Shown: piece after piece, positions 451-48,048 of the stretch
How the letters are laid out: every line of letters begins with the position of its first letter
How positions within the stretch are numbered: position 1 is the first letter of the stretch
Origin: Parcubacteria bacterium GBS-2
GTDB lineage: Bacteria; Patescibacteriota; Minisyncoccia; Minisyncoccales; GBS-2
NCBI GenBank assembly: GCA_001443025.1
Contig: LEKP01000003.1
Location: 86,652 to 150,651, forward strand
Direction: 5' to 3'
DNA length: 64,000 nt
Made by a program: the position numbers and the translations under genes
The notes under the pieces: model-generated
What the model was told of the DNA's origin: nothing
The model's database searches: none
What the model saw: only the letters and a program-made list of their open reading frames with translations

Positions 451-3400
451 TCAAATTTTAACATACTCCTTAAATAAATTTTCAGCTTGAAAATAAAGAA
501 GTTCTGTAAATTGATTAATTTGTTGGACAGGAATTTTTCTTTTTGCCAAAAGTAACTTTATTTTTGCTTTTATTCTTGATTTTATGATTTCGTTGTTTGT
601 CCAATCTATTGTCAAATCCCTCCGAATTTCTTTTACTAATTCTTTAACAAGCGATTTAATTTCTCCATTTCTGAGAGCAATTTTTTCTTGTGTGGCTATA
701 GCATCATAAAAAGCCAATTCTTCTTCAGTTAATCCTGTTTCTTTTCCTTCAATTTCTTTTTTCTTTAATTCTTTTGCTAATTCAATAAGTTTTTCGATTA
801 CTTTTGTTGCGCTGATAACTCTGTTTTCGTACTCTTCTATTATTTTTTCTAATCTCTCCATTAGTGATTTATATCTGAATAAATTTTTTCTCATTCGCAA
901 TTGCAATTCATCTCGCAAAAGCTTCTCTAGGGTTTCAATTGCCAGATTTTTGTATTCCATTTTTTGAATTTCTTCCAAAAATTTTTCATTCAAAATCGAA
1001 ATTTCCGCTTTTTCTTTTCCTCTTAGGGCAAAAATATCAATTACACCTTCTGCGGTAATACTTTTTGCAATTAATTCTTTCGCTTTCATTTCAATTTCTG
1101 GCTCTATTCCTTCTACTGCTCTTATTGTAGTTCTTTTAATCAAATTACTTCTAATCGCTCTAAAAAATTCAATTTCATCTTTAATTTCATAAGCCTCTTT
1201 GTGTGGCATTGCAAATTCAAAAAATCTAATTAAAAGTTGAGATTCTTTTAAAAATCTTTTTTTCCTTTCCTCATCAATTACTCCAGTTTTTGGATTAGTT
1301 ATAACTGAATTAATCGCTTTCTCTAATAACCTTGCCAAATTTTCCCCTTCTAAATATTTCCATTTTGAATAATCAATTCCAACAAAAAAAGATTTCACTA
1401 TGTCATATTTTTCTTTCATTTTTTCAATTATTTTTTGGAGCGGAATTAAAGCTTCAGTTTGAATCTTTCTATCATAAATACTTAATGTTTTCCTTAAATC
1501 ATCGGCAATTCCAATATAGTCAACAATTAACCCTCCTAACTTTCCTTTAAACACTCGGTTTACTCTCGCTATTGCTTGAAACAAAGTATGATTTTTCAAT
1601 GGTTTATCAAAGTACATTGTTGTCAAACAAGGAATATCAAAACCAGTCAGCCACATATCGCACACGATAACCATTTTTAAAGGATCGTCTGGATCTTTAA
1701 ATCTTCTTTCTATTTCTTCCTTTCTTATTTCTTTTTGAATTTCATTTTTAAATTCTTCTGGTTTTGAAATTACAACTGCCATCTCTGGAGCCCCAGGAAT
1801 TTTTGAAAGGATTTTATACATTTCTACCGCTACTTTTCGACTAATAGTGCAAACCATCGCCTTACCCCCTTCTTTCCGGTTGTTAAAATGCTCTATAATG
1901 TCTTTTGCGATTTTTTCTAATCTATCTTTTGCAGAAATTGCTTGTTCTAATCTAGCCAATTTCTTTTTTAACGCTTCTTTTACTTCAAAATCAGCGCCCA
2001 CCTCTTCCATTAACTCATCAAACTTTTCATCAATCCACATATCAGTCAAATGTAAAGGAACTAATCTTGCTTCATAATAGATCGGAACAATAGCTTCGTC
2101 CTCAATCCCCCGGCTCATCGTGTATTGATGAATATAATCTCCAAAAACTAACCTTGTATCCCTGTTTCTCAAACTAATTGGAGTAGCAGTAATTCCTAAA
2201 AAAGAAGCATTTGGCAAAGCTCTTCTGGCATTACCTGCCAATTTTGCATACTCTGAACGATGCGCCTCATCTGCAATTACAATAACATTGTTTCTTTTAC
2301 AAAGTGGTTCAAATTCTTCTCTCGAAAATTTTTGAATTGTAGTAAAAATTAACTCTGCCCCTGCTGTTTTTAATTTCTCTTTCAAATCCTTTATACTTTC
2401 TGCCTTTTTCGTGATTGCTTTATAACCACATCTCAAAAATGTCTTGTAAAATTGTTCGTCTAAATCGTTTCTATCAGTTAAAAATACAAAAGTCGGGCTT
2501 GAAAGTTCGGGTAATTTTTTTGCCTTATTCACATAAAAAACCATTGATAAAGTTTTCCCGCTACCTTGAGTGTGCCATAAAACCCCAATTCTTCCGTCTC
2601 CTTTTGGTTTTAATGCCTTTAATGTCGCTTCAATTGCTTTGTTTACTCCAAAGTACTGATGATACATGCAGATCTTTTTCGTATATTTTGTTACCTGTTT
2701 TTCAGAATCTGCCTCAAAAACAATAAAATTCTCAATAATATCTAAAATTCTTCTTTTTTGAAAAATTCCTTTTACTAAAACCTCCAACTCAGACACTCCT
2801 TCTCTTTTTTCTCTCTCTTCCTCAATTTCTCGCCATTTTTTAAACCATTCAAAAGAAGAGGAAATCGTTCCATATTTTGCTTCAGTTAAATCAGAAATTA
2901 CTAAAATTTGATTGTATTTAAAAAGTTCTGGAATATCTTTTTTATATTCTTGTAACTGCTCAAAAGCACTTTTAATCGTTGCTTCCTCAATCGTTGGATT
3001 TTTCAGCTCAAAAACTGCAATCGGAATTCCATTTATAAAAACTACAACATCTGGTCTTCTCATTCTCTCTTTTCCTCTAACCGTGAATTGATTTACAACT
3101 AAAAATTCATTGTTCAAATAATTTTGAAAATCAAAAACTTTCACTAAATCTCCCTTTCTTTTTCCACCCTTTTCCTTAAATTCAATTTTTACCCCCTCAG
3201 TCAGCATTCGATAAATTTCTCTATTTGCAATTTCCAGGTTCGGGTGAGAAAAACTTAAAAGTTTGTTTATTGCTGTCTCTATTGCTTCCTCTGGCAATCC
3301 TTGATTAATCCTGATTAATGCCCTTTTTAATCTTTCAACTAAAACCACATCTTGAAAATTAGGATCTTTCCTTTCTGGCATTATTCCATTAAAAGCAATA

Positions 3401-17508: not shown

Positions 17509-17738
17509 TTTTTCTTTTCTAATTCTTTCAATCTTTTCTCAATTGCCTTCATTTCTTCCTTTAAAGCTTTAAGTTCATCCAAAAGCATTTCTTTTTCTTC
17601 TTCGGGAGTAATTTTCTCAAAATATTCAGGAAATGCCCACCAACCCCTCGGCAACCAAGGATATCGCCAGCATCTCCACCAGTATTTTCTAAATTCTGGA
17701 TAGGCCCACCAAGGACCTCCTCCCATTCCCCAGGGCAT
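17505..17738 (-). CDS. DUF5320-like small protein (Gly/Trp-rich N-terminus, coiled-coil C-terminus)
   Basis: MPWGMGGGPWW... then EEKEMLLDELKALKEEMKAIEKRLKELEKKK. First gene of the coupled operon. Confidence 0.55.
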   Translation of the reverse strand: MPWGMGGGPWWAYPEFRKYWWRCWRYPWLPRGWWAFPEYFEKITPEEEKEMLLDELKALKEEMKAIEKRLKELEKKK

Positions 17739-17840
17739 AGTTTTTAAATTTTTTATAATTTTGACCTTTTTATTATGAATATATATTCAAAATAAAACTG
17801 TTTGTCAAGAGAGAAATTCTAATTCTAAATTTGTGTTTTT

Positions 17841-28677: not shown

Positions 28678-28759
28678 ATTTTGATTTTTTATTTAAAGCG
28701 ACCTTTTTCTGGCAACGTCAAACGTTGCCAGTTTATTTTTGTTTTAAAGATCGAGCTTT

Positions 28760-43317: not shown

Positions 43318-44214
43318 TTAATACTGCCTAAATTTAATTAAATCCTTTATTTTGTAAACTTCCTCCTTTCTTGAAATTTGGATTTTGTCTTTACTCTTGT
43401 GTGGGTGAAAACCTAAAATCTTCAATGCCTCAAAAACACTTTTAAGCAACGATTCATTCCTATTGGCAAATAAAAATTTGTAAGTGTAAGTTGGCTTATG
43501 TATACAGAAACTTCCTTCAGCTTCATACAGTCCACGGAGATATCTTTTGAGATAATGCTTATTTTTAAAAATCCATCGAGGGGTTTCTATTTTCTGATCT
43601 TTTCGTTTCCCAAGGGGAATTCCTAATTTTTTACTTAAATCTTTCATATAGAGCGAGATTGCGATACAATTCGATTCTTTTCTTTTGTATACCTTAGGTT
43701 TTTTCTTTAAAACTTTCTTAATCAAATGAGAGTATCTTTTTATAAACCCTGAGTTTCTCGAATTTGAAAGAAGAACAAGGCGTTCAGTTCGAGGAAATTT
43801 TTCCAAAGATCCGTCGCCTAAAATCACTCCAATTAGTTCTGCTAAGTCTCCATTCTTTTGAACAAATAAATCAACCCTCTTTGAGACAGATCCTCTTTCC
43901 TTTTCCTTTAATTTTTTCCGCCACTTCGCAAAATTATCTATCTTTTTCTTTTTAAAGGTTGTTGAAATTTTTGCAACACTAGGATGAGTTTCTTTTGTAA
44001 ATCCTTTATTCCAAGGAGGTGGTCTTTTCTTTAAACTTTCTTTCCATTTCATATACCGTGGATCGTCTTTCGGCAAGAGATTTGGGAGAAGAAAACCGCA
44101 ATTTTTTGTTCCAAATCTTTTGGTATATTTTTTAAGAGTCCATTTATGAACCGAAGCTAAATGGGTGTTTGTTATAATTTTAAAGTGCTTTCCGCAGAGT
44201 TTACATTTGACCAT
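43318..44214 (-). CDS. Free-standing LAGLIDADG homing endonuclease with an N-terminal CxxC...HxxxH zinc finger
   Basis: Two LAGLIDADG motifs, LIGVILGDGSL and YLRGLYEAEGSF. N-terminus CKLCGKHFKIITNTHLASVH. Confidence 0.85.
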   Translation of the reverse strand: MVKCKLCGKHFKIITNTHLASVHKWTLKKYTKRFGTKNCGFLLPNLLPKDDPRYMKWKESLKKRPPPWNKGFTKETHPSVAKISTTFKKKKIDNFAKWRKKLKEKERGSVSKRVDLFVQKNGDLAELIGVILGDGSLEKFPRTERLVLLSNSRNSGFIKRYSHLIKKVLKKKPKVYKRKESNCIAISLYMKDLSKKLGIPLGKRKDQKIETPRWIFKNKHYLKRYLRGLYEAEGSFCIHKPTYTYKFLFANRNESLLKSVFEALKILGFHPHKSKDKIQISRKEEVYKIKDLIKFRQY

Positions 44215-44243: not shown

Positions 44244-44266
44244 CTATCACTAGACGACCCCGCAAC
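44244..44266 (-). repeat. Decayed duplicate of the first ~23 nt of tRNA-Gln
   Basis: Minus strand TTGCGGGGTCGTCTAGTGATAG versus the tRNA 5' end TTGCGGGGTCTGCTAATTGGTAG. 10 nt are exact and about 18/23 match overall. Confidence 0.7.
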
Positions 44267-45855: not shown

Positions 45856-46898
45856 ATTTTATTTCTGCCTCGATAAAATCGTCTAAATTCCCTGCAAAGA
45901 CTTCTTCAACATCTTTTTTCTCAACTTTTGTTCTTAAATCTTTCACAAGTTTGTACGGATCTAAAACATAATTTCTAATTTGATTTCCCCAAGAGGGTTC
46001 TATTTTCTTTCCCTTCAATTTTTCAATTTCCTTTTCTTTTTCTTGTTCCATCAATTGATTTATTCTTGCCATCAAAAGCTCGAGTGCCTTTTCTTTATTT
46101 TGGGCTAAAGATCTTTCCGTTTGGCATTTTACAGTGATTCCAGTTGGTAAATGAGTAACCCTCACTGCGGTCATTCTTTTATTTACATATTGTCCTCCAG
46201 CTCCCGAAGCTTTCATATATTCAAATTCCAAATCAGAAGGATTTATCTTAATTTCTTCTTTCTTTATCTTTGGTAAAACCTCAACTAAGACAAAAGAAGT
46301 ATGTCTTAACCCCTTTGCAGAAAAAGGAGAAATTCTTACCAATCTATGTACTCCTCTTTCCCCTTTTAAAATTCCGTAGGCATACTTTCCCTTAACTTCC
46401 AAGGTACAACTTTTTATCCCAATTCTTCCTTCTGGTCCTGGTTCTCCAAAAGATTGATCCAAAATTTCAATTTTGAATCCCTTCTTTGTAAGATATCTTT
46501 GATACATCGAAAGTAAAATCGCAGCAAAATCTTGAGCATCCTTTCCTCCCTGCCCTGCTTCAATGATTAAAATTGCATCTTCTTTGTCATATTTCCCGCT
46601 CAAGAAAAATTCTTTTTCTCTTTGTTCTATTTCTTTCTCCAATTCTTTCAACTCATCCTCTGATTTGACACTTTCGATCTCTAAATTTAATATTTCAAAA
46701 TCTTCAATCTCATCTTTAAGTTTTTTGTATCTTCTTGAAATTTCTTCTGCTTTTTCTTTATCTACCCAAAAACCCTCTTTTTCCATTTCCTTTTTTAAAT
46801 TTTCAATTTCCTTTTTCTTTTTCTCAATTTCAAAGACAGTCCATTAAAAATCGAACTCTTTTTTTTAATTCTTCAATTTTTGATTGAATTTTTTCCAT
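45830..46898 (-). CDS. prfB: Peptide chain release factor 2, with a programmed +1 frameshift at CTT TGA (46835-46830)
   Basis: Frame 0: MEKIQSKIEELKKRVRFLMDCL then TGA. Skipping T46832 continues EIEKKKKEIENLKKEMEKEGFWVDKEKA... into the 45830-46786 ORF. SPF and GGQ motifs are present. Confidence 0.9.
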
Positions 46899-46899
46899 G

Positions 46900-46970
46900 A
46901 GCCGCCCGTCGGACTTGCACCGACACCTATCGCTTACGAAGCGATTGCTCTTCTTTTGAGCTAGGGCGGC
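46900..46970 (-). tRNA. Non-canonical tRNA-Thr (anticodon CGU)
   Basis: GCCGCCC/GGGCGGC acceptor, anticodon arm ATCGC-TTCGTAA-GCGAT, T arm GTCGG-TGCAAGT-CCGAC. The D loop AAAAGAA lacks GG and the T loop has G at position 55. Confidence 0.55.
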
Positions 46971-47139
46971 ATCTAGGAAGGGGTGACAGACCGATCGATC
47001 TTTTTAAGATGATCGGGCGCCATGGAGGGGGAACCTAGGTTCCCCCTATGGAGGGTGAGCCGAAACCCCATGTGAAATTTTCACGATGGGGTGCCAGCAT
47101 AAAGTGCTGGGGAGGCTCACCCTAGGGGTGTAGGGTGCA
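46971..47139 (-). ncRNA. Unassigned GC-rich structured RNA between two tRNAs
   Basis: Nested stems: GGGTGAGCC/GGCTCACCC enclosing CCAGCA-CTTTA-TGCTGG and CCCCAT...ATGGGG; then GGGGGAACCTAGGTTCCCCC and CCGATCATCTT-AAA-AAGATCGATCGG. GC content is far above the flanks. No ORF. Confidence 0.4.
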
Positions 47140-47211
47140 AGCGGGTGAGGGGAATCGAACCCCCACTTCGACCTTGGGAAGGTCGCGTACTAGCCTTTAT
47201 ACTACACCCGC
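47140..47211 (-). tRNA. tRNA-Gly (anticodon CCC)
   Basis: GCGGGTG/CACCCGC acceptor, D loop AAAGGCTA, anticodon arm CGACC-TTCCCAA-GGTCG, T arm GGGGG-TTCGATT-CCCCT, U73. Confidence 0.9.
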
Positions 47212-47212
47212 A

Positions 47213-47572
47213 TTATTTTTGGAAAAAATTGATTATCCTTTGCCAAATCGTTTCTGATTTTTCTTCTTTCTCTTCTTGTTCTCTAATCTTTTTTATTACA
47301 ATCGCCTCTTCCCCTTCTTTTACATATCCTTCTTCCCTTGCCTTTTCTTCCCAGTAACTTTCACTTTTTGCCTTTGAGATTGCTTTTTTTAATTCTTCAT
47401 TCCTCTTTTCCAAAATTTGAAGTTCTGTTTGCAATTTTTCAATTTCTTTGTTTAAATCTCTTCTTTTAGTTTCGATTCTTAAATTTGAAATTGCCAAAAA
47501 AATTATTAGAAATGTCGAAATCAAGAAAAGAAAAATTTGAAATTTCTTTTGATCTTCTCTTTTTATTCTCAC
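47213..47572 (-). CDS. Septum formation initiator-like (FtsB/DivIC family) protein
   Basis: 119 aa. N-terminal TM, then a coiled coil (LNKEIEKLQTELQILEKRNEELKKAISKAKSESYWEEKAREEGYVKEGE). GTG start. Confidence 0.6.
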   Translation of the reverse strand: MRIKREDQKKFQIFLFLISTFLIIFLAISNLRIETKRRDLNKEIEKLQTELQILEKRNEELKKAISKAKSESYWEEKAREEGYVKEGEEAIVIKKIREQEEKEEKSETIWQRIINFFQK

Positions 47573-47592
47573 ATTTCATTCTAACAAAAAAG

Positions 47593-48048
47593 CCCAAAAG
47601 TAGGTAGTAGGCCGGATTCTGTTTCTACGCCACCATCTGTCTGGGCCAGAGATTTCTCCCTGGCTCAAGCGTGCTCAGAGAAATCGGAGGCAACACCCCA
47701 ATTTCTCTCGCACTTGCACCCCGCAGGGATTTAGCCGTTTCACCCTCCCCTTTGCAAAAATTTGCTTATAGGGAGGCTATCCCCCCAGATGTATATCTGG
47801 GGGGACCCCCAAGGGTTACCCCTTGGAGCGTCTCTGTTCGCACCCCTCACCTCACGGTGGCCGGGCGTTACCCGGAGCGTTTCCCCCAGATGTACATCTG
47901 GGGGAAGGTGTCCGGACCTTCCTCCCCCCACCATTCTTTGTTTAATAAACCCACTTCTCAATAAATACCTTAATTCAAAAACTTAATTTTTTATTACTTC
48001 TTTATTCCCCAAAAAATGGTGGGGGGCGGTGGCGCCCCTACTTTTGGG
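47593..48048 (-). ncRNA. rnpB: RNase P RNA (bacterial type) with an enlarged AT-rich P3
   Basis: Minus strand GAGGAAGGUCCGGAC (P4 5' half), CCGGGUAACGCCCGG (P8), ACAGAAUCCGGCCUAC (P4 3' half). P1 pairing CCCAAAAGUAGG/CCUACUUUUGGG. Confidence 0.85.

Follow-up and report, generated by a model that had tools for sequence, protein, structure and literature searches.

The closest known analogue of the locus described here is, by organisation, the RtT repeat of E. coli tyrT/tyrV, to which it is unrelated in sequence and fold. In E. coli K-12, one RtT (RF00391) unit lies between tyrT and tyrV and three follow tyrV in tandem at 178-nt spacing; the repeat reaches 19 nt into the tyrV 3' end, and rttR and tpr are annotated there. 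RtT RNAs have been reported to be released during the processing of tyrT and other tRNA operon transcripts (PMC4986893). The segment studied here, a spacer between tRNA-Gly and tRNA-Thr in the window, i.e., the whole 64-kb stretch of DNA that was analysed, is one unit of a lineage-specific, multi-copy, modular structured-repeat family tied to tRNA genes, for which we propose the name tRNA-Gly trailer repeat. This family of thermophilic Parcubacteria, previously undescribed and uncatalogued, varies the RtT-type layout of repeats in tRNA operons with unrelated sequences and a modularity like that of REP/BIME; a literature search on repeats linked to tRNA genes in the candidate phyla radiation brought up nothing of relevance.

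Both RtT and the tRNA-Gly trailer repeat are structured non-coding units inside tRNA operons, of similar size (~130-180 nt against ~140-200 nt), and in both families a unit stands between two tRNAs and tandem units follow a tRNA. The 178-nt spacing and the 19 nt of tRNA end seen in RtT have their counterpart in a spacing of 193-240 nt and ~16-22 nt of the tRNA-Gly end. However, RtT is tied to tRNA-Tyr and the new family to tRNA-Gly, and the latter differs in its thermophilic, AT-rich Parcubacteria host, in inverted partial copies upstream of other tRNAs and in the lack of a conserved tpr-like ORF; release as a discrete RNA is reported for RtT, whereas here it would follow from the RNase Z and RNase P sites. 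The RF00391 model (gathering threshold 45 bits) did not match the window unit at E <= 10 or the homologous units of the related loci L190 and L199 at E <= 1, while the four E. coli RtT units, used as positive control, score 133-137 bits.

With REP/BIME and BOX elements the family shares GC-rich hairpin modules arranged in mosaics and in both orientations (L190, L060, L054, L052), an intergenic location that would be transcribed and a rapid turnover between strains. It differs from REP/BIME in being confined to tRNA flanks and not dispersed after protein genes, in a much larger and more ordered unit (five helices plus conserved single strands), in a strong base asymmetry between strands and in the absence of a RAYT gene among the neighbours that we saw. 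The 3'ETS-leuZ sponge is a functional RNA from an E. coli tRNA spacer, and RNAs of this type are short, single-copy and have defined sRNA partners; the likeness would be that pre-tRNA processing leaves behind an RNA which may be stable and trans-acting. Rho utilisation sites form another point of comparison, e.g., rutA-boxB-rutB of lambda tR1, and a Rho-dependent stop has been reported inside the tyrT repeats. The unit resembles them in its C-rich, G-poor unpaired RNA (G 4%, C 44%), which is parted by a hairpin within an untranslated transcript, but the window copy lies mid-operon and no rho gene occurs in the 64-kb window, the part of the genome that was covered.

The spacer and its operon

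The segment belongs to a minus-strand gene string without gaps, which runs rnpB, divIC, tRNA-Gly, unit, tRNA-Thr, prfB, ftsE, ftsX. Its surroundings are as follows.

47592-48045, minus: rnpB, first in the gene string
47213-47572, minus: DivIC-family ORF (divIC), upstream of tRNA-Gly(CCC)
47140-47211, minus: tRNA-Gly(CCC), found by ARAGORN and by Rfam (RF00005, 63.9 bits), without encoded CCA, 3' end ..CCCCUCACCCGCU
46971-47139, minus: spacer segment, 169 nt between the two tRNA genes, one unit of the family
46899-46970, minus: tRNA-Thr(CGT), found by ARAGORN and Rfam, CCA not encoded
46896-46898, minus: ATG of prfB, 1-2 nt past the tRNA-Thr 3' end

The bounds of the segment are exact, with the co-oriented tRNA-Gly ending at 47140 and tRNA-Thr starting at 46970 according to both ARAGORN and Rfam. 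Its GC content is ~55-60% (0.55-0.59 in 150-nt windows) as against 32.6% for the 64-kb window, in which GC-rich stretches beyond the ORFs are limited to the three tRNAs, rnpB and this segment. In an AT-rich thermophile, GC-rich non-coding islands are the pattern expected of structured RNAs. Samples taken at 77 C in Great Boiling Spring yielded contigs that are ~99% identical to the window, and by its release factor 2 the organism falls within Parcubacteria/Paceibacterota. The promoter scan gave a sole strong promoter, upstream of rnpB (promoter-like site at 48085-48057), and no promoter-like site between divIC and prfB. No conserved ORF is present in the segment: the ATG of a CCAUGG motif opens 16 codons in the window copy and 7 or 22 codons in two homologues, and it is missing in others, so that a coding role was dropped. 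The description in the earlier note of a GC-rich, structured, non-coding segment between tRNA-Gly and tRNA-Thr thus holds, and its proposal of release by RNase P and RNase Z fits the co-oriented tRNAs of a gap-free operon, where cuts by both enzymes would free the segment.

The prfB start has no Shine-Dalgarno sequence and lies 1-2 nt after tRNA-Thr, so an RNase Z cut would leave an essentially leaderless mRNA. The gene carries the classic RF2 +1 frameshift site CTT TGA at 46835-46830 (minus).

The earlier note had matched the segment to none of the RNA classes that it considered, and Rfam cmscan likewise assigns no family. When Rfam 15 was run on 46850-47260, both strands, at E <= 10, only chance-level matches fell inside the segment (mir-612, E 0.13; blv_FSE, E 0.84), and besides the two tRNAs nothing within it reached E < 0.1 on either strand. 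A sub-threshold Twister-sister match (E 0.017, 22.4 bits vs gathering 34) lies on tRNA-Thr at 46888-46944, outside the segment. The candidates tRNA, tmRNA, SRP, 6S, Y RNA/YrlA, T-box and known ribozymes were rejected, with no covariance-model match in gathering or permissive cmscan; ARAGORN places no tRNA or tmRNA inside the segment, and a permissive cmscan of the homologous units in L190 and L199 gave no family.

RNase P RNA class A at 47592-48045 (minus) was found in the permissive scan only (113.4 bits vs gathering 100), having been overlooked by the gathering-mode Rfam scan of the whole window; a missing match in the default scan therefore means little. This rnpB has large insertions of about 83 and 79 nt relative to the model and contains a 22-nt palindrome, CCCCCAGATGTAYATCTGGGGG, twice (47782-47803 and 47883-47904). 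In practice, GC islands flag structured RNAs in AT-rich thermophiles, and default Rfam filters can overlook them.

The other GC islands of the window were considered as sister RNAs and rejected, as all lie in ORFs except 17615-17750. The latter (minus) is no RNA gene: a short ORF there encodes a peptide rich in Trp and Gly (MPWGMGGGPWWAYPEFRKYWWRCWRYPWLPRGWW..), after which comes a K/E-rich tail. An isolated perfect GC-rich hairpin, CTGGCAACGTCAAACGTTGCCAG, at 28709-28731, lies outside ORFs of at least 100 aa and is the only such hairpin in the window apart from the RNA genes.

Fold of the unit and its strand signal

The minus-strand RNA of the segment folds at -74.7 kcal/mol, whereas dinucleotide shuffles average -46.3 (sd 4.0), which gives z = -7.16 with 0 of 200 shuffles equally good. 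Since the helices are nearly all Watson-Crick, the plus strand gives a good fold as well (-82.4, z = -5.4). The parts of the window unit are given in 5' to 3' order of the RNA.

47124-47139, minus: leader, C-rich UGCACCCUACACCCCU, unpaired in the MFE fold
47052-47123, minus: three-way junction, in which P1 encloses hairpins P2 and P3
47114-47123 (AGGGUGAGCC) with 47052-47061 (GGCUCACCCU), minus: P1, 10 bp
47094-47110, minus: hairpin P2, inside P1
47065-47092, minus: hairpin P3, inside P1
47048-47051, minus: junction CCAU, invariant in 12 aligned units (columns C89 C90 A91 T92 of alignment A2)
47026-47047, minus: P4, a perfect 22-nt palindrome AGGGGGAACCUAGGUUCCCCCU, including the hairpin AGGGGGAACC..GGUUCCCCCU
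46985-47022, minus: P5, outer stem UGGCGC with G(U)CUGUCA, with an invariant G.U
within 46985-47022, minus: inner hairpin of P5, CGAUCAUCUU-AAA-AAGAUCGAUCG
46971-46984, minus: tail, C-rich CCCCUUCCUAGAU

Much of the architecture proposed in the earlier note is recovered here. Its 9-bp stem with two enclosed hairpins is present as the 10-bp P1, yet the inner hairpins are not tRNA arms: their loops are not conserved as anticodon or T loops (3 nt in L060), and a tRNA-like reading of the three-way junction was rejected. The two other hairpins that it drew were found as P4, at 47026-47047, and as the inner hairpin of P5 in the MFE fold. The CCA-type sequence that it saw right after the stem also recurs, with the next base being A in 11 of the 12 aligned units (CCAUA) and G in one (CCAUG), so that CCAU alone is invariant; in the window copy this next base pairs as the first base of P4. 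The competing 5' pairing CACCCUA/UAGGGUG, on the other hand, is specific to this copy, as it depends on the window P1 reading GGGUGAG, and P1 of other copies (AGAGUUCGCC, AGAACCUGCC etc.) offers no complement for it.

The family consensus of the leader is YRACACCCUCACCCCU, with CCC and T invariant in alignment A2, and the leader holds a second, degenerate copy of the acceptor 3' strand motif of tRNA-Gly, CCCUCACCC. At the other end, the tail together with GUCA of P5 forms the family motif GUCACCCCU(C)UUCC, past which the sequence varies even among strains that are 99.4-99.9% identical. At least 16 diverged copies share the leader, helices P1, P2 and P5 and the motifs of the single strands. RNAalifold proposes an alternative pairing of the leader with P4.

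Strong covariation is seen in P1, P2 and P5. Across P1 and P2 (12 units), 94% of the cells are paired and both sides have changed in 11 of 16 pairs, a score that none of 500 shuffles reached, whereas slid controls are 33-45% paired. P5 (14 units, alignment A3) is 95% paired, again with both sides changed in 11 of 16 pairs and 0 of 500 shuffles as high. The P4 hairpin is present in most other units with a different sequence, and the inner hairpin of P5 likewise persists across units despite different sequences. The conserved single-stranded motifs are CACCCUCACCCCU, CCAU(A), UCCAUGGCGCUC and GUCACCCCUCUUCC.

Two features mark one strand: unpaired positions on the tRNA-Gly-sense strand are 44% C, 33% U, 19% A and 4% G, and the invariant G.U of P5 lies on this same C-rich strand. 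No wobble asymmetry was detected, in a test where few G.U pairs exist on either strand (helix pair counts 484 WC / 5 / 10 in sense copies and 203 / 8 / 8 in antisense copies). The near-pure Watson-Crick helices fit DNA-level palindromes equally well.

The repeat family and its turnover in relatives

A metagenome pattern scan with the P1-3'/CCAUA/P4 junction as query returned 20 loci, 10 of which were true homologues; an nhmmer profile recovered all copies, and MAFFT left P4 out of register. According to tRNA mapping and profile matches, full-length units directly follow tRNA-Gly(CCC), tRNA-Gly(GCC) and tRNA-Gly(UCC), and they occur in tRNA-sense orientation after tRNA-Gly only. The junction between the tRNA-Gly 3' end and the unit is the same in L060, L061, L192, L193 and L054, and full copies always begin after this 3' end or after a degenerate copy of it. 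Tandem arrays, often of 2-3 copies spaced 193-240 nt apart, have each later copy preceded by the degenerate last ~16-22 nt of tRNA-Gly, UUUUCUCAUUCCCUCNCCCGCU (L199, L202, L189). In the window there is one unit alone, starting at the true tRNA-Gly 3' end, with no second copy in the 64 kb. Leaderless or half units stand in opposite orientation upstream of tRNA-Ser, Ala, Phe, Val, Pro or Thr (L190, L191, L202, L054, L060); one half-unit, about 92% identical by reading, is found upstream of tRNA-Thr in L060 and of tRNA-Ala and tRNA-Phe in L190. The side of the unit that bears the leader or P1 always faces a tRNA end reading ..CCCGCY. In type B units, the P1 5' strand is replaced by a direct repeat, so that P1 cannot form. 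Among the fetched Parcubacteria loci (about 0.5 Mb), no copy lies away from a tRNA gene.

The order tRNA-Gly(CCC), tRNA-Thr(CGT), prfB is kept across Parcubacteria, but the spacer is not. In relatives located through RF2 (81-93% identical), the spacers at this site measure 13, 41, 131, 190, 311 or 340 nt, in some cases with reshuffled or inverted modules.

L055: 13 nt, AT-rich
L057: 41 nt, including a degenerate copy of the tRNA-Gly 3' end
L047: 131 nt, duplicated tRNA-Gly 3' part and an AT-rich hairpin
L052: 190 nt, duplicated tRNA-Gly 3' part and GC-rich hairpins
L054: 311 nt, a homologous unit and an inverted partial copy
L060 and L061: 340 nt, a homologous unit and further modules

The spacers of L054, L060 and L061 open with a segment colinear to the window unit, in which P1 reads AGAGUUCAUC/GGUGAACUCU or GGAGUUCGCC/GGCGAACUCU in place of the AGGGUGAGCC/GGCUCACCCU of the window. 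In L047 and L052 the duplicate of the tRNA-Gly 3' part spans about 31-44 nt; L057 and the arrays have a shorter one, of about 19-22 nt. Even L045 and L046, with flanks 99.4% and 99.9% identical, differ from the window just upstream of tRNA-Thr; their contigs begin inside the spacer, of which the 3' end is comparable. GTDB representatives found through RF2 keep the synteny with spacers of 4-90 nt, or with an unrelated spacer of 2173 nt (L013), and contain no unit. The homologue search therefore bears out the earlier note in part: relatives of the segment exist as a repeat family, but conservation at the same site fails in close relatives. Its idea of a dedicated single RNA gene of ~170 nt does not stand, as the segment is one unit of a repeated modular family that is absent or replaced in close relatives.

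Other observations concern the same site and its neighbourhood. The long spacer of L013 (507-2679, 47% GC) separates tRNA-Gly(CCC) and tRNA-Thr(CGT) in a GTDB MAG labelled Saccharibacteria. In the distant relatives L001 (2582-2660) and L057 (647-687), the spacer ends with a degenerate tRNA-Gly 3' end just before tRNA-Thr (GATTCCCGTACTTCGCT in L001 and TTCATTCCTCTCATCTGCT in L057), and the duplication at this site thus seems older than the GC-rich units.

The window also encodes a free-standing LAGLIDADG_3 protein of 298 aa at 43318-44214 (minus; 29.6 bits vs cutoff 22.5), between ftsX and tRNA-Gln. Its gene is absent in the 99.4% identical L045, which jumps from window position 44251 to 43312, a presence/absence polymorphism typical of homing endonuclease genes. 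In relatives, a GlmS-like gene (glucosamine-6-phosphate synthase) upstream of the locus encodes 1079 aa with an intein and LAGLIDADG domain in L047 and L048 (1-1159), and 603 aa lacking both in L052 (1-1092). In L190, a 226-aa ORF at 2653-3333 (plus) with an N-terminal HTH and a motif resembling LAGLIDADG (..YCGEGDN..) separates tRNA-Phe from tRNA-Gly(GCC) within a cluster of tRNA genes where repeat units abound; it has no significant similarity to the LAGLIDADG ORF of the window (E 0.41).

Origin and role of the units

We hypothesize, with middling confidence, that the unit is a co-transcribed spacer or trailer repeat of tRNA operons, which is excised by RNase Z and RNase P, has spread by recombination and acts in cis. 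It would be transcribed within the tRNA/prfB precursor, as the lack of a promoter between divIC and prfB suggests. RNase Z would cut past the discriminator of tRNA-Gly and RNase P at +1 of tRNA-Thr, the latter site setting the 3' end of the excised RNA, and both cuts together would free a very stable RNA of ~169 nt. The 3' halves of tRNA-Gly genes, which are near-identical, could have seeded both the rise and the spread of the family through unequal recombination or gene conversion, and such recombination would yield tandem arrays, module swaps, inversions and differences in presence or absence between strains. By our own reading, the window copy could be an L060-type spacer minus one P5-plus-tail module, lost between two (C)CAUGGCG/UCUGGCG repeats.

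The role of the unit is probably exerted in cis and dispensable. Dispensability and turnover are indicated by the same-site spacers, which differ in length and module content among relatives, and we do not think that the unit is an essential trans-acting regulator. The fold may be kept for its action on the transcript, where the unit could serve as a self-contained spacer that stops neighbouring pre-tRNAs from mispairing at ~77 C. At operon ends, the G-free, C-rich strands between hairpins could be a landing site for Rho. A long hairpin, read as putative terminator-like, comes after the terminal arrays in L190 and L191, and a convergent RNase Y gene after the array of L189. Termination by the window copy would be harmful, since it lies mid-operon, before tRNA-Thr and prfB. 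A strand-specific role in cis cannot apply to the inverted copies, because the transcript there would carry the G-rich complement.

A possible but unlikely alternative is a non-autonomous mobile DNA element (REP/BIME, MITE or IS200/IS605-derived), whose hairpins, in single-stranded DNA, would be the recognition sites of a transposase with its gene elsewhere. It could land safely in the tRNA spacers of a gene-dense genome, where the processing of the RNA cuts the insert out. Such an element would account for copies in both orientations, as mosaics or half-units, for helices that are nearly perfectly Watson-Crick on both strands, for content that differs among 99.4-99.9% identical strains and for the ~92% identical half-unit that precedes tRNA-Thr in L060 but tRNA-Ala and tRNA-Phe in L190, and the ..CCCGCY tRNA end that faces the unit could be its target site. 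It is at odds with the single copy per 64-kb window and with the fetched Parcubacteria loci, where no copy was found off tRNA genes. There are no terminal inverted repeats, the unit ends being direct repeats (leader UCACCCCU, tail UCACCCCU), nor does a target-site duplication flank the window copy. The Pfam lists of the neighbours include no transposase, RAYT or integrase, LAGLIDADG-type genes only, and IMG/VR holds no copies. Moreover, the extreme depletion of G in the unpaired segments of one strand is unexpected for a purely DNA-level palindrome.

Slightly less probable still is the idea of the earlier note, a stable trans-acting small RNA released by tRNA processing, which would work as a tRNA-like minihelix, imitate the 3' end of tRNA-Gly or sequester, as a C-rich sponge, a protein or a G-rich RNA. 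The multi-helix architecture conserved with covariation, the conserved single-stranded motifs, the strand marked by G-free single strands and the invariant G.U, and the full-length copies found only in tRNA sense after tRNA-Gly are all consistent with it, and spacers of E. coli tRNA operons can yield functional RNAs such as RtT (PMC4986893). However, close relatives lack it or have other content at the same site, the number of copies and the modules in them vary, type B units have no P1 and no partner gene is conserved alongside.

Integrases commonly recombine within the 3' part of tRNA genes. We consider it very improbable that the unit is a scar (attL/attR remnant) of the integrase-mediated insertion of a plasmid or virus into the tRNA-Gly 3' end, in spite of the direct duplication of the tRNA-Gly 3' part in the same spacer of relatives (L047, L052, L057, arrays), since no duplicate of the tRNA end lies on the far side of the window copy, the tRNA-end copies in arrays equal the bodies in number (N for N) whereas integration should give N+1, the locus contains no integrase or cargo genes, covarying helices are unexpected in a decaying scar and no matching attP-bearing viral contig occurs in IMG/VR.

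The P4 palindrome GGGGGAACCTNGGTTCCCCC gave 118 matches in IMG/VR. The multi-copy contigs examined are giant viruses of eukaryotes (UCH, XPG and Pox_A22 domains) with unrelated flanks, and about half of the contigs listed are giant-virus MAGs by name. A viral link through this palindrome was rejected as coincidence, since nothing is common beyond the palindrome of 20-24 nt, and three further family motifs searched in IMG/VR gave no real unit. The IMG/VR loci L064, L070, L104, L105 and L136 and many GVMAG contigs carry GGGGGAACCTNGGTTCCCCC as an intergenic repeat in multiple copies, often beside CCTAGGAGGGGGGTAT.

Beyond the co-transcribed trailer repeat acting in cis, a bolder view, to which we assign only a small chance, is that the units may be a new class of abundant, very thermostable RNA from tRNA-Gly operons of thermophilic Parcubacteria with a function of its own, either as a C-rich decoy or sponge with repeats of the tRNA-Gly acceptor 3' strand motif (CUCACCC) and CCA or as a modular Rho or processing signal, or that they may be a new bacterial repeat homing to tRNA-gene ends without a recognisable transposase. 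The genomes of these ultra-small bacteria are extremely compact, and ~170-600 nt of conserved, covarying non-coding sequence beside tRNA genes therefore stands out. Should the excised RNA turn out to be stable, its many natural variants would make this new structured-RNA family a tractable one. The RtT-type organisation, in which repeats begin with a tRNA 3' end, is poorly understood; the family adds a second, independent case of it from a lineage very distant from E. coli, and the recurrence of this layout suggests that tRNA operons have a general route to structured trailers.
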